Virus record (IMG/VR): IMGVR_UViG_3300032030_000005
Span: 64,001 to 128,000 of that record
Strand: one strand, 5' to 3'
DNA length: 64,000 bases
Source: a virus
Taxonomy: Duplodnaviria; Caudoviricetes
Shown here: positions 24,152 through 46,130 of the stretch, in pieces
Layout: the number at the start of each line of letters is the position of its first letter
Position numbering within the stretch: the first letter of the stretch is position 1
Translations under genes and position numbers: made by a program
Notes under the pieces: generated by a model
Database searches by the model: none
Told to the model about the DNA's origin: nothing
Seen by the model: the letters and a program-made list of their open reading frames with translations, nothing else

Positions 24152-24355
24152 AGATATATACAGTCCTATAATAATTACCGAGGATGATATCTATGGATGC
24201 TTAGTATACGCCAAGATTGTGACAACAGGCTTCTTTAAAGAAGTTGTTGTCAAAAAAATTAAATCACTCTTTAAGAAGTGATAATAAGATTAAATACTCC
24301 AGAGACTAAAAATTCTCTGGAGTATTTTTTTAACAATTTAGTGAGGAAATATTTT

Positions 24356-25468
24356 ATGAAAAAAACAACTGAAGACTTTAAAATAGAAGTAAGTAATTTA
24401 ACTAATAATGAATATACATTGATATCAGAATATATCAATAATAAAACAAGAGTTACAATTCAACATAATAAATGTAATAATATATATGAAGTTAGACCAG
24501 ATAGATTTATTCAAGGTGATAGATGTCCTTATTGTGCTGGGAAAATTGTTACCACTGATGAATATAAGAATAAAGTATATAATTTAACAAATGGTGAATA
24601 TGAGCTAATATCAGAATATATCAATAATAAAACTAAAATAAAAATACTGCATCATAAATGTAATAATATTTTTGAAATAACACCTATTAATTTTAATAAT
24701 AATCATAGATGTCCATATTGTTCACACCCAAGTAAGAAGAATTCTATAGAAGATATTAAAACTAAAATATTCAATCAAGTTAATAATGAATATACTTTAT
24801 TAAGTGATACATATATAAATAATAAATCTAAATTATTATTTAGACATAATAAATGTGGTAATGAATTTGAATCTAGTGCTGATAACTTTCTTAATAAAAA
24901 GAGACGTTGTCCTAAATGTTCTTTAGAATTAAGAAGTAAAAAACATAAACTAACTCATGAAGAATTCTTAGCTAAAATACCTAAAGATGTTTTTAATGAT
25001 TATGATATATTAACTAAATATACAGCTAGAAAAAATAATATTAAAGTCTTATGTAAAAAATGTAATAATACTTTTATATTAACAGCTGATGAATTTCTAG
25101 CTGGCAATAGATGTCCTCACTGTAGAGTATCTATTGGTGAAGATTTTATAGATAAATGGTTAACTAAAAATGGTTATGAACATATATGGCATTTTAAAGA
25201 CTTTAAAGATTGTAAATATAAAAAGACTTTAGAATTTGATTTTAAATTAGAAGATTCTAATGGTAAAATATTTATAATTGAATATGATGGTGAATTTCAT
25301 TTTTTACCTATATATGGCAAAAAACAATTAGAGCTACAAATTAAAAGAGATAACATTAAAAATGATTATTGTAAAAAACATGGAATAGATATTTATCGAA
25401 TACCATATACAAAGTTTAATGAATTAAATTCTATATTGGAAAGTATTGTTAGTAAATATAATTATTAA
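24356..25468 (+). CDS. Free-standing homing-endonuclease-like protein: repeated Zn-ribbons plus a Vsr/EDxHD-like nuclease domain
   Basis: Four repeats of Y.L.S.Y.NNK......H.KC.N.F......F....RCP.C, then SIGE...FDF...IIEYDGEFHF...RD..K. Start ATG 24356 (GAGG RBS) is preferred because 24278 lies upstream of a terminator. Confidence 0.8.
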   Translation: MKKTTEDFKIEVSNLTNNEYTLISEYINNKTRVTIQHNKCNNIYEVRPDRFIQGDRCPYCAGKIVTTDEYKNKVYNLTNGEYELISEYINNKTKIKILHHKCNNIFEITPINFNNNHRCPYCSHPSKKNSIEDIKTKIFNQVNNEYTLLSDTYINNKSKLLFRHNKCGNEFESSADNFLNKKRRCPKCSLELRSKKHKLTHEEFLAKIPKDVFNDYDILTKYTARKNNIKVLCKKCNNTFILTADEFLAGNRCPHCRVSIGEDFIDKWLTKNGYEHIWHFKDFKDCKYKKTLEFDFKLEDSNGKIFIIEYDGEFHFLPIYGKKQLELQIKRDNIKNDYCKKHGIDIYRIPYTKFNELNSILESIVSKYNY

Positions 25469-25474
25469 AATATA

Positions 25475-25512
25475 TACCCTAAAGATCAAACGATCTTTAG
25501 GGTAAATTTTTT
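25475..25512. terminator. Bidirectional terminator
   Basis: TACCCTAAAGATC-AAAC-GATCTTTAGGGTA. Confidence 0.8.
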
Positions 25513-28500
25513 TAGTACATTTCTTTGATTTGTCGTTTAAGTTCTATAAGTGCTTTAGACGCATATCCCATGATAAAAATATCCAATGTCATACGTGAAT
25601 TTATACTAAGAGGGCTTAATATACCTTCAATTATTTCATCTTGTCTATAATCTGAATATGGTTCTTCACCTTTTTCAAGAACTCTAGAAACGATGGTTTT
25701 AAGCGCAGTACCGTAGATTATTTTATCACCAACACCTAATTCCTGATAGTATTCGATAAAGAATTCAAACATTACACCATCTACAAGATCTTCACCTTTA
25801 ATTTTATCTTCTTTCTGAATATCTATAATAGGTGCATTAAGACTATCAAAACCACTACCTTTATATTTTTCGATAAGGTTCTTTCTAGTCTTCTTACTAT
25901 TAATATAAGACTTAATAATATTCTGTAAACTTTCAGAATATTCGTTAATCTCATTTGTATAATATATATTAATCTTTGTTACTACACCTGTGTATTTACA
26001 CTTTAATTCATTTTTAGCCATTTCAGCAATGTTTTCTACAAATTCATCACCGATTTTACCAAGAATATCATTAATAGATTCATCATTAAACGCATTTTCA
26101 AATACTAATAATGGTTCATTAGTCTTGATATGCTGACCTTCTTTAGCTATATAACTTACTGTAGCATTTTTATCTAATATTTTAGTCTTTCTCATTGTTA
26201 CTTTAGTTGCCATAGCTTCGGATAATGTTTCTGTAATCATAGAAGAGTCTTCAAGTGTAAAGTCTCCTGATGTTATGGCTATTTTACTTAATCTACCAAG
26301 ACAATATGTAATATCGTCCTTTTTACCGTCTCCCTTAAAGAAGTTAGGGTTTTTAGCTAAAATAGCACCTTTAACGAATTTATCTCCTTCATTATATAAC
26401 ATTTCGAATTCCTGTCCAATAAAGAAACCACCATTAGAGTTATTACATTCAACTATATCTAAATCTATTAAATCCTGTTTACCAGATTTATATTTTATAA
26501 TAGCTACTTTATTCTTAGTATCTATTTTTTCAACTACACCGTCTTCTTTAGCTTTAAATGCAAATTCATCAGAGATCATATATGGAACAGTCTTTTCAAT
26601 ACCACTACCAATAATAGGAGGTCTTTGATCTAATACTGATACGATGTGTTTCTGTTGTACAGACTGCATTGAAATACGTGGAGAGTCAGCGTGAGTAGTT
26701 GTAGCCGGGTTAAGTAATTCGGATACATCATACTGTGTTGTATTACCGTTACCAGATTTATTACTTGGGTCCACAAAGCCATAGATGTTTGTAATTTTAG
26801 GGTCATATGTCAGTTGTCGAACAATGCCTACCTGATTACCTTCAGGTGTATTTAATGATATTAATCCCTTCATGTTCTCATTGTAACCACGTACTCGTTT
26901 AGTATATGCTTCACTTACATTAATACCTGCTAATCCCTTCATAGAAGCATTACCAGTTTTCTCCAATTCAAGAGAAGGATTTAAACTTGAATAGTTTTCA
27001 ATAGTTTTAAGTTCCATCAATTTTTTAGTAAGAATATCTGGATCAACTGTAATCTTTACAGGGTTTTTAGCATGTTTAGAGTCTTTATAATGTTTAAATG
27101 CATCTGCTAATACTTTATACATCATAGCAGGAACTTGTTCAGCACCACGAATTCTAAAATTATTAACATCTGTAGGTTCTGTAAATGAAATATCTTCAAG
27201 TAATGTATTAGCATATAATAATACATCATATACATTTGTAGGAAGATTTAATTCTTCTAAGATATCTCTTGTAATAGGATCTATTAATAATGAAATAGAG
27301 TTATGGAAACCTTTAGCAGCATTTCGTGAATTAAATGCATCACCAAAGTAATCTATATATGGATCTTTAGTATTCATATCTGCAAAGACTATTTCTTCAC
27401 AATCCATTTCTAATAATCCTGATAATAACATACTATTTCTAATCTTAGAAGTATCATAATAAAGATAACCATCTTTAAATTTAATTTTACCAATATCATC
27501 TTGGATATTAATAGATTTATTCTTTTCTTCAAATGTATATTCAATATTATATCTTTCTAAAAGATTTAATAATCCTAATTCATATCCTAATAAAACTGCT
27601 ATAGGAAGTGTTTTATTATTGATTTCCATTCTTGAATATGTTAATTTATTATTTGTTTTAATCTTAGTAGATGATAAATCCTTTACCTTATCAGTTGTTA
27701 CTTCATTGATTAAAGTAATAATCCACGATGATAATGTAGTATCTAAATTCTCATAATTCTTTCCATCATAAAGATATATCTTTTTATCAACAATATTAGA
27801 AAGTATTAATTTTTTCTTATCACTTGTATGACCTAACATGAAGTATTCTTTTTTATCAAAGGTTGCTTTAACAGAAAGCTTTTCATCATATTTAGGCTTA
27901 TTTATATCAAGCATATTTTGTACCGTCTGTTGGTCGAAGATTAATTTATAATTTTCAACATCTAAGCTATAAAGATAAGTAGATATATCACAATATTCTG
28001 ATGATACAGTATACTTACCATTATTCTTAATTGAGTTACCTAATTTATAATCAAAGGTAACTCCTTGTTTTTTATATTTTAATAAATTATGCTTAGTAAA
28101 TAAAGTTTTAAGATATGTTAACTTTTCACTAAACTTTTGACCAAATCTAGTAATAAAGTGCTTATTATAGTTAGTTGTAATCTGTACTCTGTCTGGTTCT
28201 AATTTAACGATAGGCATAAATACAATCTGTTTCATAATAATCTTTTTATTACCATTTACATACATGAATTTACCATCTTTGATTTCTGGTATATTTACTT
28301 TGAATTTATGTGCTACACCTGTATCATCTTTAAATTCAATTTCAAGTAATTGCTGTTTATTCATATCTGTATTATTTGGTTTAAGATCTATCTTATTAAC
28401 ATATACACCAATATCATTATCATTATTAAATGCTTTAAATACTTTAATCATATCCTGATTAAATTTCTTATTCATATAAGAATTATCATAATCTGTTAAA

Positions 28501-29690
28501 GTACTGGTAAGAATTTCTTTATTTAATACTTCTTTAATATTACCATCAGAAATTTCTTTATGATCAATTTTCTTTTCGTCATAATTCTTCTTGATATCTT
28601 TTAATGAGAAGTCATTGAACATCAGCTTGTCCTGTTGAATCAATAACTGTTCAGCAGTTTTCTTACGTTCCCCATCAAGTTTATCTTGTTGAGATTTGAT
28701 TAAAGAATCCTTGAAGTTTTTATCATTTAACATAACCTCTAACATCTGCTCTTCAGTCATATCTTCTGATGTATCAATCTTTTCTTCTACAACTTCTTCA
28801 ATCTTATTATCTAATTCAGACATATTGTCATCGTCTTCATTAACACCAAGATCATCTACAATCTTTTCCTTAAGGTTACTCTTAGCAACTTCTTTTTCAG
28901 TTTCTGTAGTATCTTCTTTAGCACTAACTTTTGATGCAAAACCACTTGAAGGTGCATTCTTATTTTCAGAAGATTCTTCATCTGCAATAATCTTACTTAC
29001 TTCTTCCGTACTAAGTAAAAGATGATTTACACGAATAATAAACTTCTGCTTATTAGTATAGAAATCTTCATCTACTGTAAGTTTAAAGTATGTTTTATTT
29101 TTAGCTGATACAAAAATAAAATTAATACCCATAAACTTTTCAAGAAACCAATCAGGTCTCTTTTTCATCATTGTCTGAAAATAATATAAAAAGCTTTCTT
29201 TATTTTCCGGATCCATACCATCAACATTAAATACAATAACTTTATGGCTGTATTTAAATTCATTATATTTTTTATACATTCCATCAAAGAAATCTTGCAT
29301 TTTTAATAGCTGAGATTTCTTGGAAGATTCCTGATTAATGAGTAAGTATGGGGTCATATCATAAAGTAAATTAGCATTTTTATATGATGTTATATTCTGT
29401 CTACATGTAAAATGATAATTAACCTTTTCCGAAAAATCTTTATAATGATTAGACTGATTTATTAAGTTTCTAATCTTTTTATTATCAGATACTAATAATT
29501 TTTCTCTATAATAATTTTTAAAATATGTAGGCATAAATATATTAGCATTAATAAATTCTATAAAATTTTCAGGAGAATTACCAACATGTAAAATAAGTTG
29601 ATTTTTATTTAGTTCTTTATTATTAGAATCTAAGCCTTTAATTTGTCTATTAAATAATCTATAATCAACTATTTTATCTAGTACTATCAT
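25512..29690 (-). CDS. rpoB: Phage multisubunit RNA polymerase beta-like subunit, N-terminal part (probably virion RNAP)
   Basis: Motifs TPEGNQVGIVRQL, RISMQSVQQKH, FTLEDS, GVGDKI, ILSPLSINSRMT, after which the protein ends (phiKZ/AR9-type split). About 400 aa of N-terminal extension with an acidic linker. Late promoter. Confidence 0.9.
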   Translation of the reverse strand: MIVLDKIVDYRLFNRQIKGLDSNNKELNKNQLILHVGNSPENFIEFINANIFMPTYFKNYYREKLLVSDNKKIRNLINQSNHYKDFSEKVNYHFTCRQNITSYKNANLLYDMTPYLLINQESSKKSQLLKMQDFFDGMYKKYNEFKYSHKVIVFNVDGMDPENKESFLYYFQTMMKKRPDWFLEKFMGINFIFVSAKNKTYFKLTVDEDFYTNKQKFIIRVNHLLLSTEEVSKIIADEESSENKNAPSSGFASKVSAKEDTTETEKEVAKSNLKEKIVDDLGVNEDDDNMSELDNKIEEVVEEKIDTSEDMTEEQMLEVMLNDKNFKDSLIKSQQDKLDGERKKTAEQLLIQQDKLMFNDFSLKDIKKNYDEKKIDHKEISDGNIKEVLNKEILTSTLTDYDNSYMNKKFNQDMIKVFKAFNNDNDIGVYVNKIDLKPNNTDMNKQQLLEIEFKDDTGVAHKFKVNIPEIKDGKFMYVNGNKKIIMKQIVFMPIVKLEPDRVQITTNYNKHFITRFGQKFSEKLTYLKTLFTKHNLLKYKKQGVTFDYKLGNSIKNNGKYTVSSEYCDISTYLYSLDVENYKLIFDQQTVQNMLDINKPKYDEKLSVKATFDKKEYFMLGHTSDKKKLILSNIVDKKIYLYDGKNYENLDTTLSSWIITLINEVTTDKVKDLSSTKIKTNNKLTYSRMEINNKTLPIAVLLGYELGLLNLLERYNIEYTFEEKNKSINIQDDIGKIKFKDGYLYYDTSKIRNSMLLSGLLEMDCEEIVFADMNTKDPYIDYFGDAFNSRNAAKGFHNSISLLIDPITRDILEELNLPTNVYDVLLYANTLLEDISFTEPTDVNNFRIRGAEQVPAMMYKVLADAFKHYKDSKHAKNPVKITVDPDILTKKLMELKTIENYSSLNPSLELEKTGNASMKGLAGINVSEAYTKRVRGYNENMKGLISLNTPEGNQVGIVRQLTYDPKITNIYGFVDPSNKSGNGNTTQYDVSELLNPATTTHADSPRISMQSVQQKHIVSVLDQRPPIIGSGIEKTVPYMISDEFAFKAKEDGVVEKIDTKNKVAIIKYKSGKQDLIDLDIVECNNSNGGFFIGQEFEMLYNEGDKFVKGAILAKNPNFFKGDGKKDDITYCLGRLSKIAITSGDFTLEDSSMITETLSEAMATKVTMRKTKILDKNATVSYIAKEGQHIKTNEPLLVFENAFNDESINDILGKIGDEFVENIAEMAKNELKCKYTGVVTKINIYYTNEINEYSESLQNIIKSYINSKKTRKNLIEKYKGSGFDSLNAPIIDIQKEDKIKGEDLVDGVMFEFFIEYYQELGVGDKIIYGTALKTIVSRVLEKGEEPYSDYRQDEIIEGILSPLSINSRMTLDIFIMGYASKALIELKRQIKEMY

Positions 29691-35000: not shown

Positions 35001-36867
35001 ATTAGCAGATGATGTTGGTAGTGAAGGATATAGTGAAGATGCAGCTGTTGCTTTAGCACAAAATAAGAATAACTCTATGGCCGCAAAACTCATTAATGCT
35101 TTTGCAAAAGTATATGGACATTTTGCATTTACTGATAGTAATGGAGATCCATTGTATACAACTAATTTAAGAAAACAAGCTCAAGAAGAAAACTTAAGAG
35201 GTGGTCTTACTGGAACATCTTCTAATGGTTCAGCAATCACTGCAGCTCAACGATTATTTGATGGCAGTAGCTATATAGGCTATGACGAAGATGGTACTTG
35301 GGGAAATAGCTCAACAAAAGATGATATTTTTAAAAGTAAATATTTTGCTTCAAACGGTAATGGATCGGCTGAATGTAATTTAGTAACTAATATTATTAAC
35401 AATAACTGGAAAAAATATAAAACTGATAATAATATATCTGATGAAGATGCAGGTACAACAATTAGCAATGGTTCATTAACCTATTTAAATGGATTCTTTA
35501 ATAAAGAATATAAAAAAATGTATGATTCTTTTGTAAAAAGAGTTGCTTTTGCAGATGATACAGCTAAAAATTTTATGCATGAAAGTATTGCTAAATCAAT
35601 TAAAAATTCTACTCCTTGGATTGATATGAAGGATCTATCAAATTCTAGTGACATTAAAAACAGAATAAAGCAAAATATTAATGCACGTTCTCAAATTGAT
35701 TATGGTAATTATGGTTTAGGTCATAGACACAATAGATTTGGTGGAGCTAATACTAAAGATTCTGATTTTATTAATGCTTCTAAATATGCATTAGTTAAAG
35801 GTTATAAAGAACAAAATGGTGGTACTTATCCTCAGTTCTTTAAAGATTATTTAAATAAAAATGGTATCAATGTTAACTATAATTCTAGTGCAAATAATAT
35901 TAAGAGAAGCTTATTACGTGGTAATCCAGTTATTTTAATGGGACAAGATAATGCTGATTCTGGTTTAACGCCATATGGAGATACACCTCACTATATAGTT
36001 GCTACTAATTATGATGGTAAAAATATTAGAGTTATTGACTCTGAAAGTAGAAATGATTATGATATTTATAATGCAGATAATGTATTAAGACATTCTACTA
36101 TTAAAATAAGTACAAATTCTGGTAAAAGTGGTTATGGACGAATTACTGTAAATAGTGGTTCACATAACATATATAATGGAAGGTCTTCAAAAAATCATAC
36201 ACATAAACATATACAATACAATAGAGGTAAATCTTTTAAAACTTCTAATAACTATTTAAAATCTTATAAATCTCATTATGGTAAAGGTGATGAAGTAATA
36301 ACTAATAGTAATGGTAGCAATATTAAATCCAATAGTAATACTGTAACTACACCTACACCTACAATGTCAAGTCAGGCTATTGGTAATATGTATGTAACAT
36401 TACAAGGTTATGTAAATGGTTATGATTTATTATCTAAATATAAAACTGGTCATGATATTTGGGATAAAGTTAATGAAGCTTTAAAAGCAGAACCTAAAGA
36501 GACTGGTGTTACACCAGCTGCTTCATCTACTACAAAACAAGAAACGTCTATTACTCCTACTAAAGAAAAAGAAATTAATGAAGAAGTTAAGACTCAAACA
36601 TCATCCGTTGTTCAACCGGAAGTTAAAAGTGATATATATCAAAAGAATGGAACAATGTATGTTGTTAATAATATTGAATACGGCGTTAAAACTAATATAG
36701 AGAGTATTATAGAAGAATTTAAAGAATTAAATAACGTTCAAGATGATAGTTTAGAAGTATTAAATACTATTTATAGTAAGCTATTAAAACGTAATGGTAA
36801 AAATCCAAATAATATTAAAATAAAAGATTATGATTATTCATTAAAAAATAGAAGATATACTTTTTGA
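32074..36867 (+). CDS. Tape-measure-like tail giant A, carrying the His/Asp half of a C39-like peptidase
   Basis: Helical N-terminus, TMP-type HAGG...LHNGEKVL motif, Ala/Gly hydrophobic segments. C-terminal region has LLRGNPVILMG...PHYIVATNYD...VIDSE. Confidence 0.75.
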   Translation: MANNYKSSRDIFARSQNNLNKLTSNTKNITETAASINADNTGSSLQMKVTQETTVLNSSLQNMNNVLSELNNSVVGLQSALKNIAENHTTINSLLATQLVSLTQINSLVTAFRSDYILSKNGNKNKGISYYDRNLILRDISNIKTSDKTVDSILSSLRNAANYANRSTNAIRSKLGSRQDLDDNSIFNKILGLADQGKQFAGLGTLLPMYRNGGKYSKFIENAMSADTSTIGSLIESFLGANGKRKFKDIKGLGSKFLDSNNPLKQMLGGLMEKAGMTNLKKEREKDPDLVYTALAPFADDIKDIVELKVKGIHSRPTKEVIPEYATPVWIVNSPDQKNYITSNKTLSRSLREQRIHDITRGIANNYKDIYGNDLLEKDIDEKWIGSATEGFSENEIKKMINRANRLERRSQYHGATKIEEFLGKNKILNKLLDDNNTGVQMIGGMAGNALTQILGSHAGGKRNKGSSGAYLAGLHNGEKVLGPNALDEHEKINDISKIIGLTISTLTSAIKLEKYKAGLLVAYTNKDPKMAAKVKVDTTILAQDEMTELGAEKENKIGTNIIKIIGSKLFKANTKETTKEYFGLKGNSEADVAQQAEAQAQQGQETIDQLVKEKQRMDEELFIRKMIIDRTNKARIWAAQKANNVKLRAKKMANKVRLFAREKAGNLKNIAINAKNHVALLGTKVSGTVKRLGKKLAAKTASILDRVKNSVLIQKAKMVKTALFEKIKSLISTTGDILGTAGSVIGKILDTIRIAIPVVGQAITAVAGPASILLLGGIGLAALLKAKKGQNSNIKLESVIKKVSGKISDVKNKILKKEEKEEKEASKAEVAKQENEKKAEEKDTNRTIAENKSFTSQVKYTESNVSTENKNTRQIKIDEEEQLEGPVKYLNKMQRKMLLNNTTKMADLFSKKPKQAASMAWLLNGGYTVLGLQSASTDELESLNELTSTSNSTSVTPKKESLWTRLTKKLTKKKLLADDVGSEGYSEDAAVALAQNKNNSMAAKLINAFAKVYGHFAFTDSNGDPLYTTNLRKQAQEENLRGGLTGTSSNGSAITAAQRLFDGSSYIGYDEDGTWGNSSTKDDIFKSKYFASNGNGSAECNLVTNIINNNWKKYKTDNNISDEDAGTTISNGSLTYLNGFFNKEYKKMYDSFVKRVAFADDTAKNFMHESIAKSIKNSTPWIDMKDLSNSSDIKNRIKQNINARSQIDYGNYGLGHRHNRFGGANTKDSDFINASKYALVKGYKEQNGGTYPQFFKDYLNKNGINVNYNSSANNIKRSLLRGNPVILMGQDNADSGLTPYGDTPHYIVATNYDGKNIRVIDSESRNDYDIYNADNVLRHSTIKISTNSGKSGYGRITVNSGSHNIYNGRSSKNHTHKHIQYNRGKSFKTSNNYLKSYKSHYGKGDEVITNSNGSNIKSNSNTVTTPTPTMSSQAIGNMYVTLQGYVNGYDLLSKYKTGHDIWDKVNEALKAEPKETGVTPAASSTTKQETSITPTKEKEINEEVKTQTSSVVQPEVKSDIYQKNGTMYVVNNIEYGVKTNIESIIEEFKELNNVQDDSLEVLNTIYSKLLKRNGKNPNNIKIKDYDYSLKNRRYTF

Positions 36868-36885
36868 GATAAGGATGTGATATAA

Positions 36886-39800
36886 ATGGCAGATATGAAA
36901 TCTTCTAAAGATAAACTTAGTCAAGCAGTTAATAATATGGATCCAAATCTTCAAAAAATAGCAGCTAATACTGATGCAATTGTATCTACCTTATCTCAAC
37001 AAAGTAGTGCAATTCAACAATTAAAGGATGCTATTGCTAGAAAAGAACAAACTGAAAATGAAGGAAATAAACAGATCACTTCATCATTAAAACAAACAAA
37101 TTCTACAATATCATTAATAAATAAAAATATATTAAATCTTAATAAAAATGTAACATCATTAACTAAAACAGTATCTAGTTTAAATGAAAGTAGAGGAACT
37201 ACAGTATCCTTATTATGCGGAATTCAAACTAGTTTAATTCAAATTACTAGTGTTCTTGCATCTTTTAGATCAGATTATTTATTATCAACTAACGGTCAAA
37301 GAATTAATGGTAATTCTTTTTATGATATGACTAGTTTAAATAATCTAGTTAATTCATTATCATCACTTAAAGACCCAACAGTTAAACAAAATATTCAAGC
37401 ATTGCATAAAGCTTTAAAATATGCTAATAGCTCTTCAAAGAGTGTCAGAAGCCATTTAGGACAAAATGTAACTAATGAAGATAGTATATTTGAAAAGATA
37501 TTAGGTATTGCAGATACAGGAAAACAATATGCTGGTTTAGGTGCATTATTTAGTCCTTATATTAAAGGTGGCAAATTTAACAGTGTTATTGATAGATACA
37601 TGAATGCAGATACATCATCAATAGCTAATTTATTCTATTCAATGTTAGGCTCTAATGGTAAGAAAACTATTAAAGATATAAAAGGATTAGGTTCTAAATT
37701 TTCTGATTCAAATAATCCTCTTAAGCGTTTAATAGGCAATATGATGGGTCAAGCAGGATTTAAAAATGAAAAGAAAGAACGTGAAAAAGATCCTACTTTA
37801 GTATTAAGTTCATTAGCACCTTTTGCAGATGATATCAAAGATATGGTTAATTTATCATATCAAGGTGTAAAATCAAGACCTAAATCAATACCAATATATG
37901 CAAAGCCAGTTTGGATTGTAAATAGTCCAGATCAAAAAAATTATGTTGGTAATGTAAAAGCTAAAGATACGCATGGTGCAGATTTAAAACGTAAAAGACT
38001 TGAAGATTTATTTGGTGGTAGAGCCAATAATCTTAAAGATATTTATGGTAATGAATTATTATATCAAGATGAAGATGGTCATTGGAAAGGTTCTGCAACT
38101 GAAGGTTTCAATAATAAACAAATAAGAAATATTAGACAAAAACAAGAAAGCCGTAATAGAAAATTAATGTATGGCGAAAATTATAAAGAATTAGAAAATA
38201 AAATATATGGTAGTAAAATATTAAATACTGGAATAGGAATTGGTAATTTTAAATTATCATTAAATGATTTATTATCTGAAGATCCTAATAATGTAATGGG
38301 TAATATGATTAGTAATTTAGCAGCTAATGGATTACAACAAATACCTGGATTATTAGGAAGCCATGCCGGTGGTAAAAAAGGTAAAAAGAGAAGAAAAGGT
38401 CTTGATCCAAATCGTGAAATAAATACTAATGATCATGATGTTAGTTTAATAGATGGTGAAACAACTGTACTTAATGCTTCTCAAACAGATAATCTTAAAG
38501 ATATGGGAGATATTAAATCTGGTATTACCACAATGTCAGGTGCTATTGCATCTCTTGCTAGTATTATATCTCAATCAACTATATTATTTAGCCAAGCGGC
38601 ATCTAGTAAGAAACAAAAGATAGATAGTAAAGTATTAAATAAACTTAGTCCTGATGAATCAGTATTTGATTATTTATTAAAAACTTCGGGTTCTGATGAA
38701 GGTTCTAAGAAAGCTTTAACACAATTTAAGAAATTCTCTAATCTTAAGAAAACCTTAAAAATAACTAGTAAAAGAGAAACAACTTCAGAATACTTTGGAT
38801 TAAATCCAAATGAAGGTAATGGTAAAAAAGGTGTATTAAGCGGTGCTATTGATTCATTAACTACCAAACTTGGTGTAAATAAAGATCTCGTTAAAGACCC
38901 TAAGCGTTTTATTAAAAATAGTATTATAAGAAAAGTTAACAACACGTTTTCATTAAAGGGTACTTCATCGAACGGAACAGCTGATAAAATAGCTGAAGGA
39001 GTATCTGATGATAAGAATAAAAAGAAAATTAAGGGTTTATTTAAGAGCTTTAAGAAGCAACAAGACTTAGAAATTAAAGATAAGATTAAAGAAGGAACAA
39101 CTGGCTTAAAAGATGTGGCTAAAGTATCTGCAACTAATGAAACAGTTACTAATAGTATTAATACTGCAGAAACTGCTGCAGTAGAAGCTAATATTAAAGC
39201 AGATGCTGCAACTAATGCTTCTATTAATAAAATGAAAATGGCAAATGCTAAACAAGAAGAAGCTACAAAAGCAGCAGCTGATAAAACAGAAGTAGCTCAA
39301 CAAATAGCAACTGATAAGTTTGTTAATGCTACAGAAGTTAAAACAGCGGCTCAAGAAGCTATGGTTCAGGAAGCATCTGTAGGAGCTGAAGCAGGAGCAT
39401 CTACAACAAGCTTTTTAGGAAAAATAACGGCTACAATGTGTGGTCTTCCATTACCAGTTAAAATAGGCCTTGGAGCTGCCGGTGTTGCTGCTACAGTTGC
39501 TATTGGTAAGAAAATGTATGATAAAGTTAAACAAGCTGCCAATGGTAAAAAACCGAATTTTGAAGATAGTCAGTCTTCATTAAAAGGTGCAAGTGGAAAA
39601 ACCGAAAAGGAAGCTCAGAAAGAAAAAGAAAAAGCAGAAAAAGCTCAAAAGAGACAAGAAAGATTAGAGAATTTTAAGAAAAGAGCCAAGAGAAGTTTAA
39701 AATCTAGCTTTAATGCTTTAACATTAGGATTATTTGCACAAAAAGTTTATGTTGCTGATAATGGTGATGTATTATATTCTAAAGATAATTCTCCAGTAAA

Positions 39801-42627
39801 GAAATTAGATAAACATGGTAATGAAACTGAAGAAACATTAAATGTTAAAGATACATCAGGAAAGGTACAGTTAGCTAATAGATTAGCTGCTCGTGAATTT
39901 AAATTAGATAAAGTAAAAACTGCTAAATTTATAGCTTCTAAAGTTAAAGATGGTGTATCTAAATTAAAAGATAAGATAAAAGAAAAAGCAGAACAAGTTA
40001 AAAGTTGGGCTGGTAAACATAAAGGTGAAATAGCTGCTTTTGCAGTAGGTGGTATTGCTGGAGTAGGAGCTTATGAAGTTGCTAAAGGTGCTTATAAAGG
40101 TGTAAAAACTCTTAAAGAAAATAAATATGAAAAGATAAATCAGATGTTAACAGTAGCATCTACACCATTCTTATTTATGGATAATAAAATGAAGAAATCT
40201 ATTGAAAAATTACAAAATAGCAAGATTGGTAAACAGATGTTAAATCAGCCAATGAAAGCAGCTAAAACATTATTCCAGACTGCTACGTATAGTATATTCG
40301 GTAGTAGTGAAACTGCCGCTGAAAAATCTGGTCTTAAATCTTTATTAACGAATATTACTAAGAAATTAACAGGCGAAGATGATCATAAAGATAAATTTAC
40401 ATCTAACTTAGAAGATATTGGTGAAGAAAGTGCAACAGTAGCATATTCAAAGTTAAATGAAAATAATCTTAGAAATAGAATATTAAATGCTTTTGCTAAA
40501 GCTACTGGTATTGCTACTGCTAAAAAAGGTGATAATGGTCATGTAATGACAACTTCTCAAATCGTTGATGAAGAAAGAACGAAAAATGCTTCATTACAAA
40601 TTGCAGCAAATGGTACAGCTGGTAATGCTAGTGGTGCTAATATGTCAGGTACTTGGAATTCTGCTGCACAAATGATCAATGGACCAACAAAAGGTCAAAC
40701 TGTTCAAGATTATGTACTTAAAACATTACAAAATAGTAGTATTTCTAGAGGCGTATCAGATGGACATAGAGGTGTTGACTTCGCCGCAGCAATGAACACA
40801 CCAATTTATTCTCCATTTGAAGGTAAAGTTGTAGCCAGTGCATACGATCCAGATAGAATCATATGTACTAATAATGCAGGTGGAAATGATGAAAATGGAT
40901 CAATGGGTAACTTCGTATTAATGCAATTACCAAATGGTAATTATGCAACATTTATGCACATGGTAGAAGGTCCTGCAGTTAGAACTGGCGAACTTGTTAA
41001 AGCTGGACAGTTACTAGGTAAAGTAGGTAATACTGGTGGTAGTTACGGTGCTCACTTACATTTAGAAATAAAAAGTGGTATGTGGGGTGGTACAGTACTT
41101 GATCCGGCATCATATGGTTTAGGAAGAAAAGGTAAAAAATTAGATGGTTTTGATAAAAATAAAAAGACAACCGGATACGGTGCTCATGTATATCAAAGAG
41201 ATTATTCTAATATTATCTTTAATAAAAATGGTGATGAAACATTACAAACATTAGGTGATTCTGGTTGCGGTCCAGCAGCTGCAACTGTTGTTAAAAGATT
41301 ATATACGAATGGTAAAAGTAGATTTGGTAGAGCTGATAATAAAAATAAAGATAATAAAGATAAAAGTACAGCTAAAGCATCTACAGTTCAAAATCCATTA
41401 GGAAAAACAGCTTCATTCTCAGACGATTATGGTAATACATTTGATATTACTATTGAGCAAGAACATATTGATGTATTTAATGCTTGTAAAGAATGTGGAT
41501 GTTCTGATGCGGCTGCTTGTGGTGTATTAGGTAATTTACATCAGGAAACAGGTGGTACTGGTGAAAGATTAAGACATTGGGCTGAAAACCATGGTGAATA
41601 TGGTGGAGGTATCATGCAATGGACTCCTTGGACTAAACATGTTGATTGGGCCAACAGTCATGGTATGAACCCTTGGACTTGGGAAGCAAGTTTAGCACAT
41701 ATGCAAGACGAATTGCTTAATGGTGGTAACTGGTCTAACCCTCAAGATGCTAGTCCTTCTTTAGCAAGTGAAGGTTATCATGCTTGTTCTAATACTCCAG
41801 AATTTATGGCATTAAATGATCCAGCTGATGCAGCAGTAAACTTTGAAAGAGCATTTGAAGTTTCAGGTGACTGGAATGGTAGAAACTCAGAAGGTATTGT
41901 ATATAGTGAAAATCAGCTTAGAGACAGAAAGAGAGTTGGTCCTGCTATTGCATATTATGAATGCTTAGTAGGTACATATAATGGTTCTGTAAGACTTAGA
42001 TCGTCAGTAAATGGAGTTTCTGGAAGTACAGGATTTATTAATATTATTACTGATAGTGTTGTAAGTGGATCTCAGTTAGCTAATTATATGAATGCTAACA
42101 AATCTACTAATAATAGTACTACAGATATAACAGCTAGTAATGGAAGCACTGCTACTACAGGTAATGGTCGTTTTGGTAGGGGTGTAAGTTTTGGTAATAT
42201 TCATTTTGAATCTACTAGTTCACCAAATAATAATAACAATAGTATACAAAGTAATATAACTAAAACTGCAGCTGTTGCTCCTTCAGTAGGTTCTTATATA
42301 AAGAATAATATGTCTATAACAGATACCGATGATAAAGGAAATTCAAAAACAACAACAAGCGTATATACTACTGATAATAAAACAACTTTAACAACAAACG
42401 GTAAATCAACAATTGTTATTTGTAATAACTTTACGGAAAAGACTAAGACGGATTTAAGTGAGATACTTTCTAACTTTAAAAAGTTAAACGGTACTCAAGC
42501 TAATGCTTTAAAAGTATTAAAAGCTATATCTGATTTAATTAAAGAAGAAAATTCAGAAGCATTAGAAAGTCTTTCAAATCTTAAACTTTCTAATGATGGT
42601 CTTGATTATATCCTTAAAGGATTATAA
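36886..42627 (+). CDS. Tape-measure-like tail giant B: M23 peptidase, Cys half of a C39-like peptidase and phage tail lysozyme
   Basis: N-terminal ~480 aa paralogous to giant A. M23 motifs HRGVD...HM...GAHLHLE. C39-like YQRDY...DSGCGPAAA. Lysozyme motifs GVLGNLHQE...GIMQWT...FERAFE. Confidence 0.85.
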   Translation: MADMKSSKDKLSQAVNNMDPNLQKIAANTDAIVSTLSQQSSAIQQLKDAIARKEQTENEGNKQITSSLKQTNSTISLINKNILNLNKNVTSLTKTVSSLNESRGTTVSLLCGIQTSLIQITSVLASFRSDYLLSTNGQRINGNSFYDMTSLNNLVNSLSSLKDPTVKQNIQALHKALKYANSSSKSVRSHLGQNVTNEDSIFEKILGIADTGKQYAGLGALFSPYIKGGKFNSVIDRYMNADTSSIANLFYSMLGSNGKKTIKDIKGLGSKFSDSNNPLKRLIGNMMGQAGFKNEKKEREKDPTLVLSSLAPFADDIKDMVNLSYQGVKSRPKSIPIYAKPVWIVNSPDQKNYVGNVKAKDTHGADLKRKRLEDLFGGRANNLKDIYGNELLYQDEDGHWKGSATEGFNNKQIRNIRQKQESRNRKLMYGENYKELENKIYGSKILNTGIGIGNFKLSLNDLLSEDPNNVMGNMISNLAANGLQQIPGLLGSHAGGKKGKKRRKGLDPNREINTNDHDVSLIDGETTVLNASQTDNLKDMGDIKSGITTMSGAIASLASIISQSTILFSQAASSKKQKIDSKVLNKLSPDESVFDYLLKTSGSDEGSKKALTQFKKFSNLKKTLKITSKRETTSEYFGLNPNEGNGKKGVLSGAIDSLTTKLGVNKDLVKDPKRFIKNSIIRKVNNTFSLKGTSSNGTADKIAEGVSDDKNKKKIKGLFKSFKKQQDLEIKDKIKEGTTGLKDVAKVSATNETVTNSINTAETAAVEANIKADAATNASINKMKMANAKQEEATKAAADKTEVAQQIATDKFVNATEVKTAAQEAMVQEASVGAEAGASTTSFLGKITATMCGLPLPVKIGLGAAGVAATVAIGKKMYDKVKQAANGKKPNFEDSQSSLKGASGKTEKEAQKEKEKAEKAQKRQERLENFKKRAKRSLKSSFNALTLGLFAQKVYVADNGDVLYSKDNSPVKKLDKHGNETEETLNVKDTSGKVQLANRLAAREFKLDKVKTAKFIASKVKDGVSKLKDKIKEKAEQVKSWAGKHKGEIAAFAVGGIAGVGAYEVAKGAYKGVKTLKENKYEKINQMLTVASTPFLFMDNKMKKSIEKLQNSKIGKQMLNQPMKAAKTLFQTATYSIFGSSETAAEKSGLKSLLTNITKKLTGEDDHKDKFTSNLEDIGEESATVAYSKLNENNLRNRILNAFAKATGIATAKKGDNGHVMTTSQIVDEERTKNASLQIAANGTAGNASGANMSGTWNSAAQMINGPTKGQTVQDYVLKTLQNSSISRGVSDGHRGVDFAAAMNTPIYSPFEGKVVASAYDPDRIICTNNAGGNDENGSMGNFVLMQLPNGNYATFMHMVEGPAVRTGELVKAGQLLGKVGNTGGSYGAHLHLEIKSGMWGGTVLDPASYGLGRKGKKLDGFDKNKKTTGYGAHVYQRDYSNIIFNKNGDETLQTLGDSGCGPAAATVVKRLYTNGKSRFGRADNKNKDNKDKSTAKASTVQNPLGKTASFSDDYGNTFDITIEQEHIDVFNACKECGCSDAAACGVLGNLHQETGGTGERLRHWAENHGEYGGGIMQWTPWTKHVDWANSHGMNPWTWEASLAHMQDELLNGGNWSNPQDASPSLASEGYHACSNTPEFMALNDPADAAVNFERAFEVSGDWNGRNSEGIVYSENQLRDRKRVGPAIAYYECLVGTYNGSVRLRSSVNGVSGSTGFINIITDSVVSGSQLANYMNANKSTNNSTTDITASNGSTATTGNGRFGRGVSFGNIHFESTSSPNNNNNSIQSNITKTAAVAPSVGSYIKNNMSITDTDDKGNSKTTTSVYTTDNKTTLTTNGKSTIVICNNFTEKTKTDLSEILSNFKKLNGTQANALKVLKAISDLIKEENSEALESLSNLKLSNDGLDYILKGL

Positions 42628-42682: not shown

Positions 42683-44236
42683 GTGAAATATATGCCTGAT
42701 AATTTTTTAGAAAGTGCTTCATTAGACTCTGTGGGTTATGAAAACTTCTATACCGAAGGAGAAAATGGTGAAAGTTTAGGAAAAAATTCAGCATTCTTTA
42801 ATTCTAATGAGGTTCAACCATCTGAAGGTGTTACTGTAACTGGTAAACCTATGAGTAGTCACGTTGCTATGGCTATTACCGGTAAAGATGTTAAAAATGG
42901 AATATTCTTTGGTAAAGAAAATAAAGTATTTGGATTACCTTTTAAGTATGGTCCTTTAGCTGATCCTATGGGTAGAGTATTTCAAAGCACATTTGAAACA
43001 GATAGTTCATGTGTAGCTTTTATTAAATTTGGCGTACCAAAAATTAATAGAGCTTTATTTGGTAAAATGTCTGCTGATGCTAGTGATACACCATCATTTG
43101 GTTTAAATATTTATTATGGTTTTAGATCAGCTATTGATCCAACAACTAATACACAAGACCAAAGATTAATTACATTTGAACCTAAAATGAATCAATTTAT
43201 GAAATACGCAAATGCTTCAATTAATGAAGTATATACATTATTAGACTTACCGGGTTTATTTTCTACAGATGGTTATACAGATGAAGAATTTGAAAACGGT
43301 TTTGCATTTTTCTGTACTAAAACAAGCACAATTACTGAAAGCGTAGATAATAATTATACAGAACCAGACATTATTACTAAAATGAACTCAGATGCAGCTT
43401 TACGTAGACAAAATTATCAGATGTATGGTACTTATGGTAGTATTGCTAACGATTCAGGTGGTACTGATGCTATAAGCTGGTTAGAGTCAATAGCTAATAC
43501 TCAATTACAAAAAGTTGCTGAAAATATTGCCGATAGTCCTATTATTGGTTCTGTTGCTTCAGCATTTATGAAATCAAATAAAGGCACTATGGGTTATTAT
43601 GGAGAATTATGGGCTGACTCTAAGACTTCTGATAGCTTTTCATTACAATTTAAATTTAGATCACCATATGGTTCTAAATATGAAATATTCAGAAATTGTT
43701 TCTTCCCATTCTTATTATTACATACAGCCGCTATTCCAAAACAAGATGGTAGATTTAGTTATCAAGAACCATTTATGATAATGATTGATTTTCCGGGTTG
43801 GTTTAGAGTTAATTGTGGAGTTATTCAATCTTTAAGCTGGGTTAAAGGTGGTAGTAATGCATTATTTAATGTAGATGGCTTACCATTAGAAATAGAAGTT
43901 ACTATGAATGTTAAAGATCTCTATCCAGTTCAATTATCTTCAGAAAATGTTACAGTTATGGAATATAACTGGGGTCTTTTAAGTTTCTTAGAAAATATGG
44001 CTGGATTAACAACGGCTCAAGCGGCTTATATAAGTAATGTACAAAGTTTCCAAAATGCAATAAGAACTACAATGGCTCAAAGTGATGGTTCTATTATGGG
44101 CAATACTAAAGCTTATTTTAATGCACATTATCGTGTAGCCGCTAATAAATGGAATGCTGCTGGTGGAACAGTGGGCGGATTGATTACAAATGGAGCAAAA
44201 AGAGAAATACGTTCAAGAAGTTATTTAGGTCGTTAA
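42683..44236 (+). CDS. Conserved jumbo-phage virion protein (baseplate hub / tube-initiator-like)
   Basis: ELWADS...FRSPYGSK...P.Q...YQEPF...G.I.S....KG......GLPLEIEV....DLY. Follows the tape-measure genes. Confidence 0.55.
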   Translation: MKYMPDNFLESASLDSVGYENFYTEGENGESLGKNSAFFNSNEVQPSEGVTVTGKPMSSHVAMAITGKDVKNGIFFGKENKVFGLPFKYGPLADPMGRVFQSTFETDSSCVAFIKFGVPKINRALFGKMSADASDTPSFGLNIYYGFRSAIDPTTNTQDQRLITFEPKMNQFMKYANASINEVYTLLDLPGLFSTDGYTDEEFENGFAFFCTKTSTITESVDNNYTEPDIITKMNSDAALRRQNYQMYGTYGSIANDSGGTDAISWLESIANTQLQKVAENIADSPIIGSVASAFMKSNKGTMGYYGELWADSKTSDSFSLQFKFRSPYGSKYEIFRNCFFPFLLLHTAAIPKQDGRFSYQEPFMIMIDFPGWFRVNCGVIQSLSWVKGGSNALFNVDGLPLEIEVTMNVKDLYPVQLSSENVTVMEYNWGLLSFLENMAGLTTAQAAYISNVQSFQNAIRTTMAQSDGSIMGNTKAYFNAHYRVAANKWNAAGGTVGGLITNGAKREIRSRSYLGR

Positions 44237-44909: not shown

Positions 44910-46130
44910 ATGGTTTATACTACTTACTTAAATGAAGAAATTGCAAATGATGAAATTTATCCAATTTTTATAGCTTTATCTGAAGGCAAATCTTATATTT
45001 CTAAAAAAATAAAAGATGTTACAAAATGTCCATATTCACATTGTATGATAGGATTAGATCCAGAATTAAAGTATTTTTATAGTTTTAATATAATTGATAA
45101 TTTTAATAATGGATTTGTAATTGAAACCCTAGAAAATTTAGCAAAGAAAGCTAATAGTATAAATATATATGTATTTTTTGTAAATAGATCTATATACAAA
45201 AATATAGTTAAATCTATTAAGAGGTACAATGATTTAAAAGATAAAACTAAGTATAGTATTAAAAGATTATTTGAAGCTGCTTTTAATAAAGGTAAAGAAA
45301 CTAATCCTATGCAACAGGTATGTTCATCATTTGTTTATAGTATTTTATCGCATTCAGGAGTACATTTAGCTCCAGATAATATATTATGTGTAAAACCTTC
45401 AGATTTTTACACTACTATAAATAATAATAAAAAATATATCTATCAGATATATGAAGGAAGTCCTCTTGATATAAATATGGATGATATTACTATTGAATTG
45501 AATAAATTAAAAGATAAGAAAAGTACTAAAGAATTTAATCAAGAAAAAATAATACTTACAGAAAGTGAACGTATATATCCAGAAACTGTCGATAGGTCAG
45601 CATATGATAATTTTGTATTATTTAATTTATTTCATGTTTACACAACAGATATGACTTTGAGAAATGATCCACAATTTATATCTAAAATGAAATGGGTTAA
45701 AGATAGAATAACTGAAATATGTGATATGGCTGGATGGACAGTATTTCCTTATGAATTAACTTTATGTGCATCATTTGAAGACCTAGATGAATTTTATAAT
45801 CATCAAGCTCCTAAATGGGTAACTGGTTTTACATATGGTGATAAAGTTTATATGAAAGGACCTGCTATATATCCTGGAGAACTTTATTATAATGTAGTAT
45901 TACATGAATGTATTCATGTTCAAATATATCTTAATGAAAAAGTACAAGGAAAAACTATATCACGAGAAGATGAAGAAGGTATGGCCGTTTTCTTTAGTAC
46001 TCCACTTGATAAATGGCTTAAGGAATTAAATCATGGTCCTAACTGGTATTATTATGAGAGTGCAATAAGAGTTCAAGAAGACTTTTTAAATTATGGAATG
46101 AAAAAAGTAATTCAGAAAAGATTTAAATAA
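44910..46130 (+). CDS. Permuted papain-like (YaeF/YiiX-type) domain fused to a HExxH zincin-like domain
   Basis: PYSHCMIGLD...VCSSFVYSIL...VKPSDF (His before Cys), then VVLHECIHV...EEGMA. Confidence 0.75.
   Translation: MVYTTYLNEEIANDEIYPIFIALSEGKSYISKKIKDVTKCPYSHCMIGLDPELKYFYSFNIIDNFNNGFVIETLENLAKKANSINIYVFFVNRSIYKNIVKSIKRYNDLKDKTKYSIKRLFEAAFNKGKETNPMQQVCSSFVYSILSHSGVHLAPDNILCVKPSDFYTTINNNKKYIYQIYEGSPLDINMDDITIELNKLKDKKSTKEFNQEKIILTESERIYPETVDRSAYDNFVLFNLFHVYTTDMTLRNDPQFISKMKWVKDRITEICDMAGWTVFPYELTLCASFEDLDEFYNHQAPKWVTGFTYGDKVYMKGPAIYPGELYYNVVLHECIHVQIYLNEKVQGKTISREDEEGMAVFFSTPLDKWLKELNHGPNWYYYESAIRVQEDFLNYGMKKVIQKRFK

Follow-up and report, generated by a model that had tools for sequence, protein, structure and literature searches.

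Within the 64,000-nucleotide window of viral DNA analysed here (bases 64001-128000 of IMG/VR record IMGVR_UViG_3300032030_000005, which is 305,865 bp long and estimated to be 100% complete), two tandem genes encode very large proteins, termed giant A and giant B, each of which carries one part of a C39-like cysteine peptidase domain (Table 1). The N-terminal part with the glutamine and cysteine (N-half) lies in B, whereas the C-terminal part with the histidine and aspartate (C-half) lies in A. The split is genuine and conserved: two separate genes, coding for tandem paralogous virion giants, share between them a single C39-like catalytic domain. A preliminary description, made from the nucleotide letters without database searches, had proposed two paralogous giants with complementary protease halves; both open reading frames (ORFs) hold, the codons named for the catalytic Cys, His and Asp translate as claimed, and the paralogy is borne out by 43% identity over ~497 N-terminal residues (expect value, E, 3e-96). 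A and B are also alike in the stretch before the enzymatic region and in the C-terminal ~100 amino acids (aa).

Table 1. Features of the split-domain locus, in window coordinates.
Feature	Position	Strand	Remarks
Giant A, 1597 aa	32074..36867	+	N-terminal chassis paralogous to B, hydrophobic mid-segment, conserved C-terminal ~80 aa
RFGG linker motif	35734..35745	+	Immediately upstream of the C-half
C-half (His/Asp part) of C39-like domain, A residues 1226-1356	35749..36141	+	PF13529, hidden Markov model (HMM) of intact domains, conservation peak
His1306 codon	35989..35991	+	From translation; invariant
Asp1322 codon	36037..36039	+	From translation; 16 residues past His1306
Giant B, 1913 aa	36886..42627	+	In order: chassis, hydrophobic segment, M23, N-half, lysozyme2, conserved C-terminus
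Peptidase_M23, B residues 1293-1397	40762..41076	+	69.6 bits against a cut-off of 28.7; zinc motifs HxxxD (HRGVD) and HxH (HLH)
N-half (Gln/Cys helix part) of C39-like domain, B residues 1431-1473	41176..41304	+	Intact-domain HMM; N-half HMM, 88 bits
Gln1454 codon, putative oxyanion-hole Gln	41245..41247	+	7 residues before Cys1461
Cys1461 codon, putative nucleophile	41266..41268	+	Start of central helix
RFGR linker motif	41320..41331	+	After the N-half; followed by a low-complexity spacer, then lysozyme2
Phage_lysozyme2 (phage tail lysozyme), B residues 1529-1663	41470..41874	+	64 bits against a cut-off of 28.2; confidently modelled
'Virion structural protein' neighbour	42683-44236		Adjoins giant B

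Searched as a whole, giant A has no match in Pfam or PHROG. When residues 1241-1322 are cut out, however, they match Peptidase_C39_2 (PF13529) with 33 bits against a cut-off of 24, restricted to positions 55-141 of the 143-position profile, and a six-frame search of the whole genome with PF13529 returns that single match in giant A only. His1306 is invariant in all A-type proteins (the orthologs of A), in all headless C-halves carried in cis by other giants and across 109 C-half sequences, while Asp1322 is invariant in the A-types and nearly so across the 109 C-halves. Profile searches found no N-half in giant A, and no cysteine was found upstream of the His half-domain in the A-type orthologs. 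The only cysteine among the 1597 residues of A, Cys1101, is unconserved and was ruled out as a substitute nucleophile, the aligned ortholog positions being K, E, E, gap, gap and A. Orthologs P0003-P0007 carry a glucosaminidase domain after the C-half, together with an apparent SGNH module seen by reading the sequence and with no profile match behind it; the corresponding stretch of the window (36142-36867, A residues 1357-1597) consists of low-complexity sequence and the conserved C-terminus and lacks both, so that the half-domain is the sole recognisable enzyme-like module of the window's A.

The N-half of giant B, set between the M23 peptidase and the lysozyme, is too short to match Pfam when searched alone (nothing at E<10). 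Its C39_2 membership follows indirectly, since intact relatives match PF13529 and B in turn matches those relatives; the family assignment put forward in the preliminary description is thus confirmed directly in Pfam for A and through the intact-domain HMM for B. Gln1454 and Cys1461 are invariant in 105 aligned N-halves. The preliminary description had quoted this stretch with its YQRD motif; the Gln of that motif, also conserved among B-types, is a separate residue from Gln1454 (LQTLGDSGC), to which the oxyanion role falls. Profile searches found no C-half in giant B; with a single unconserved Cys in A and no C-half in B, neither protein completes its own triad, as had been surmised. In one B ortholog (P0032, L002:16274-23125), the place taken by M23 in the window's B is occupied by a whole C39_2-like domain of divergent sequence (residues ~1458-1575; profile positions 14-142; 21 bits, below the cut-off; GGCSLTS...HYVAID...MDPG), and the L002 genome therefore has a whole papain-like peptidase besides the split one.

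To place the halves relative to each other, we used an HMM built solely from eight intact domains of relatives. A-types match its positions ~50-182 (window's A, positions 51-182, E 1.7e-34), the window's B matches positions 6-67 (E 5.6e-12) and other B-types positions 6-52. From these ranges the two halves are complementary, with an overlap of at most ~2 positions, and the break falls in the same loop, just past the Cys helix, in both proteins; the earlier reading of B as front only and A as back only is thereby upheld. The intact domains of relatives are colinear with the B half followed by the A half, and one of them, P0010, runs uninterrupted from a stretch 45-60% identical to the B fragment into a stretch ~50% identical to the A fragment, within a domain that matches PF13529 positions 12-142 (48.5 bits). 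Judged by their sequences, the B and A fragments are genuinely homologous to the front and the back, respectively, of a single C39-like domain. Here Gln, Cys, His and Asp are never all in one polypeptide and are complete only as A plus B: each half occurs just once in the genome, and across its 305,865 bp no further member of the C39-like family was found. The RFG[R/G] motif to which the preliminary description had drawn attention is present at both halves, but proves to be this window's form of an aromatic-Gly-basic linker that recurs at the majority of domain borders in these giants, rather than a signature of the split.

Both halves stand out as peaks of conservation. Among B-types, the 45-residue N-half reaches 0.74, on a par with the most conserved part of the lysozyme domain and far above the linkers, and 22 of its ~40 positions are invariant across 9 B-types, Gln and Cys among them. 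The C-half is likewise the conservation peak of the A-types (0.57-0.72), with His and Asp invariant, whereas the flanking linkers are conserved at only ~20-35%.

Relatives carrying the intact domain in one ORF, as envisaged in the preliminary description, do exist: hundreds of phage proteins have it whole, mostly giants of 3000-6000 aa. Searching 1.84 billion representative proteins with a profile yielded 1446 hits; of the best 150, nearly all are such giants, with the intact domain at approximately residue 3000-3700, and ~11 are proteins of 1500-2100 aa that have the C-half only. IMG/VR contributed 68 loci: L006-L009 each have a C-half-only gene directly followed by an N-half-only gene, the large majority of the others are single ORFs with both parts contiguous, and in a dozen or so of the most distant loci the C part alone is above threshold. 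Wherever the neighbouring gene can be read, the C-half-only gene is immediately followed by the N-half-only gene, which holds for seven of seven distinct contexts (the window, L002, L006-8, L009, L076, L077 and L078) derived from different samples, assemblers and sources (ENA, Logan, JGI, IMG/VR). P0009 is uninformative, its contig stopping short of where the neighbour's N-half would sit, and P0019, at first sight a B-type lacking the N-half, was discarded since its gene is truncated where the contig begins. In the tree, the A-type C-halves group as one clade (support 99/99), and the split therefore arose once and persisted, through a divergence that now leaves 48-62% identity in the C-half and 44-71% in the B region from N-half to lysozyme2.

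The AlphaFold2 model of an intact relative best matches the C39 peptidase domains of ComA and PCAT1 (E 1e-5; template modelling score 0.69-0.74 by target) at a sequence identity of ~17-23%, with PeiR and staphopain ranking lower; searches of PDB chain sequences, by single sequence and by profile, gave no match. We also modelled the two fragments as a complex, with the A half as chain 1 and the B half as its partner, and obtained a score of 0.90 versus 0.02 for the best of 3 controls; 58 of 80 solved complexes attained this mark, as did 2 of 110 mismatched pairs. At least 87% of contacts agree between runs and the partner's predicted local distance difference test (pLDDT) value is at least 79. 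The modelled interface joins chain-1 residues 85-88, in the His1306 strand, to chain-2 residues 32-47, in the helix that starts at Cys1461, and the Cys helix is thus placed on the His strand, in agreement with the pairing suggested in the preliminary description. Modelled in cis with lysozyme2, by contrast, the N-half appears disordered (pLDDT 31-51, versus 80-91 for lysozyme2), a comparison that is loose given the different predictor and shallow alignment. The low confidence of the N-half in cis fits a piece that needs a partner.

We favour, with modest confidence, the view that A and B reconstitute in trans into an active C39-like peptidase. B would bring the N-terminal element, with Gln1454 as the oxyanion residue and Cys1461, where the central helix starts, as the nucleophile, and A would bring the beta-sheet part carrying His1306 and Asp1322. 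The B helix would dock in the groove of the A half-domain and rebuild the ordinary single-chain fold, with a competent active site arising only once A and B meet, most plausibly via co-assembly through their shared N- and C-terminal chassis. The physical association, the catalytic activity and the substrate of such an A/B peptidase are inferred. That the pair represents an obligate two-gene cysteine peptidase, an evolutionarily stable split papain fold that ties a wall-degrading or self-processing activity to correct A-B co-assembly, we consider evenly balanced between true and false, and the further idea of an assembly-gated switch for tail maturation or lysis is speculation.

Several points weigh against reconstitution in trans. 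The co-assembly of A and B is assumed. The complex model amounts to support rather than proof, because halves of a fold with solved single-chain structures may pass by likeness, and its calibration is only rough because the model was run on our own alignments. The model of the intact relative has a pLDDT of 62, and its N part is poorly determined (pLDDT 30-57). Searches (tblastn) with the A half and the intact domain against 50,697 records of isolate phages gave no match, and the C39-like family is known from metagenomes only. The aromatic-Gly-basic motif [YFW]G[RKG], a conceivable cleavage site, is enriched 1.6-2.7-fold over all groups and to a similar degree in M23-only giants that lack the domain. 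Finally, four single giants (P0048, P0053, P0054 and P0058) carry one complete copy of the domain plus a second, headless C-half, and in their phages no N-half-only gene was found within the contig stretch searched; the C-half may thus have a role that needs no dedicated Cys partner.

The headless cis copies start right after a GKYGRG-type linker at the same loop, with His and Asp intact. A common origin of all headless C-halves was ruled out, as the P0048/P0053 and P0054/P0058 copies fall outside the A-type clade. The loop past the Cys helix is therefore a recurrent module boundary, at which headless copies arose at least two more times. (Two of the giants with a headless copy are also found as loci, L074:9917-21424 corresponding to P0058 and L075:10001-22066 to P0054.) A C-half that persists in this form either borrows an N-half or has a Cys-independent role, and since such copies persist without a dedicated Cys partner, an alternative in which the halves of A and B never meet stays alive. 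In that case the C-half of A would be a binding module for wall or linker recognition and the N-half of B a structured spacer before the lysozyme, as leftovers of a former domain or in separate roles. The more than one origin of the unpartnered cis copies and the lack of a Pfam match for the B fragment alone both speak for it. We nevertheless regard it as unlikely: a 45-residue fragment that is as conserved as the adjoining catalytic lysozyme, with Gln and Cys invariant, is hard to explain as a spacer, the same fragment is modelled as disordered in cis, and the halves co-occur in every readable context with an identical break point.

Should the halves dock, the rebuilt domain could still be non-enzymatic, a heterodimerisation clasp through which giants A and B pair up during assembly. 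Docking as such is supported by the complex model, strict co-occurrence and synteny would fit any obligate A-B contact, and the paralogous chassis suggests co-assembly. A mere clasp, however, would have no need for invariant Gln, Cys, His and Asp, all four of which have been kept while the linkers diverged to ~20-35% identity, and we hold this explanation to be quite improbable. An artefact, whereby mis-assembly or recombination between the paralogs in a metagenomic record produced an apparent split, might be suspected for paralogous genes from a metagenome assembly, but its likelihood is negligible and mis-assembly is excluded, because all seven contexts, from different samples and assemblers, share the pairing, and the same architecture and break point recur in independent assemblies whose sequences have diverged (38-70% identity).

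If A and B do form a peptidase in trans, our best guess is that it cuts a peptide bond in the wall of the host cell. This is favoured because the domain always lies among wall hydrolases (its neighbours are M23, lysozyme2, glucosaminidase and other hydrolase-like modules) and because this fold is known from a viral wall peptidase, PeiR. Alternatively, the enzyme might act on the giants themselves (self-processing), at the aromatic-Gly-basic linkers bordering most modules, both halves included (RFGG, GYGR, GYGA, RFGR); such linkers would suit a papain-type enzyme that prefers a hydrophobic residue at P2 and a small one at P1. In some intact-class giants the motifs [YFW]G[RK] and GxG[RK] lie far above expectation (P0010, 9 observed versus 1.2 expected), but over all groups the excess is modest and not confined to giants with the domain. 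The 'YG' at the break was considered as an internal processing site; it is weak, being present in 64 of 105 sequences, and it was not counted because YG is also the usual end of the Cys helix in C39 peptidases.

Among known systems, the C39 double-glycine leader peptidases of bacteriocin ATP-binding cassette exporters (ComA PEP and PCAT1) have the same order of residues, namely Gln, Cys at a helix start, His and Asp. The split domain has the spacings Gln-7-Cys and His-16-Asp; in ComA the residues are Gln11/Cys17 and His96/Asp112, so that the His-Asp spacing of 16 is the same as here. ComA and PCAT1 are, however, single-chain domains attached to a transporter, and they cleave leader peptides behind a Gly-Gly pair, whereas the A/B domain resides in phage virion giants among wall hydrolases, with its catalytic residues on two gene products. 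Direct homologs are found in the single 3000-6000-aa phage giants (among them P0010, P0034, P0040 and the L010 giant), which are 47-52% identical to the A half and 44-60% to the B half and share the module neighbourhood, the C39-like domain being followed by lysozyme2 and sometimes by M23, glucosaminidase or SGNH; they differ in having the domain intact in one chain and another N-terminal chassis. The pseudomurein endoisopeptidases PeiR and PeiW, whose C39-like fold ranks 19 and 23 among the structural matches, illustrate that the fold can be a virus-borne wall peptidase, although they are single-chain archaeal-virus lysins with another substrate.

Adenain, the adenovirus protease, is activated by the pVIc peptide of another virion protein and in this resembles the proposed A/B enzyme: a virion cysteine protease whose activity depends on its first binding part of a second virion protein, and hence an assembly-linked switch. 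It differs in that pVIc gives no catalytic residue, the triad lies in one chain, and the enzyme belongs to clan CE and to another virus world. Presenilin, with its N- and C-terminal fragments, and retroviral protease dimers likewise build one active site with catalytic residues from two polypeptides; both are aspartic, the presenilin fragments are cleaved from the product of one gene and the retroviral enzyme is a homodimer, so that neither amounts to a papain fold divided between genes. Peptidases of the papain fold are regarded as single-chain units, and to our knowledge there is no case in which the papain-fold Cys and His lie on two genes and have been kept so through long divergence; likewise, literature searches on split phage peptidases of the C39 or papain-like kind returned nothing relevant. 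Reconstitution of the halves would offer a natural example of enzyme control through virion protein co-assembly, a ready-made, small (~45 + 130 residues), self-assembling split-protease pair, and a handle on the organisation of the huge, uncharacterised multi-hydrolase proteins of jumbo phages. The headless copies already show the loop past the Cys helix to be a module boundary.

As to the proteins themselves, A and B look like tandem paralogous virion proteins of the tape-measure or ejection type, in view of their great length and hydrophobic segments; hydrolase modules are also visible. PHROG tail matches to the chassis are weak (~E 4e-4) and relatives lie near a tail-tube gene, and the label 'tail giants' used in the preliminary description would follow from domain content and neighbours. 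A duplication after which each paralog kept one half, as proposed there, is plausible: the L010 intact giant has the module order C39-like domain, lysozyme2, M23, which B resembles minus the C-half, and the A/B paralogy and the module order of close intact relatives fit duplication followed by reciprocal loss. Module shuffling, in which partial modules were gained by recombination, is an equally open route because the A/B N-terminal chassis has no detectable BLAST counterpart in the single giants that bear the intact domain.

The window has a G+C content of ~25% and encodes a topoisomerase II and the beta subunit of a multisubunit RNA polymerase that is ~40% identical to those of Bacillus phages AR9 and PBS1. 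The source is an uncultivated 306-kb jumbo phage and a distant relative of the AR9/PBS1 group. An HNH homing-endonuclease gene (24278-25468, +; phrog_559, E 1e-114) lies beside the RNA polymerase beta gene (25512-29690, -), and in the AR9 and PBS1 records an HNH endonuclease is likewise annotated within or next to the beta-subunit genes. Three genes downstream of giant B, a 406-aa protein (44910-46130, +) has a weak crotonase/ClpP-fold match (phrog_1128, E 1.5e-6); instead of a metabolic enzyme it may be a maturation protease of ClpP/S49 type, which would make it another candidate cutter of the linkers.

Intact-class giants show some further features of their organisation. In one such phage (L004:1-11083 and L003:3-7744), gene calling divides the giant into three overlapping genes (1127, 1115 and 1459 aa; overlaps of 22 and 7 bases), which may reflect frameshifting, sequencing error or true fission, and in L005 a 5043-aa open frame encloses the 2307-aa gene that was called (P0013). 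An amphipathic helix motif (LLSKL..Y....KGV[FY]GDFYDALYG or GLI.LL......GKALSAF) recurs before several enzyme modules in P0010, P0013, P0054 and P0058, for example at P0010 residues ~700-740 and 1000-1040.

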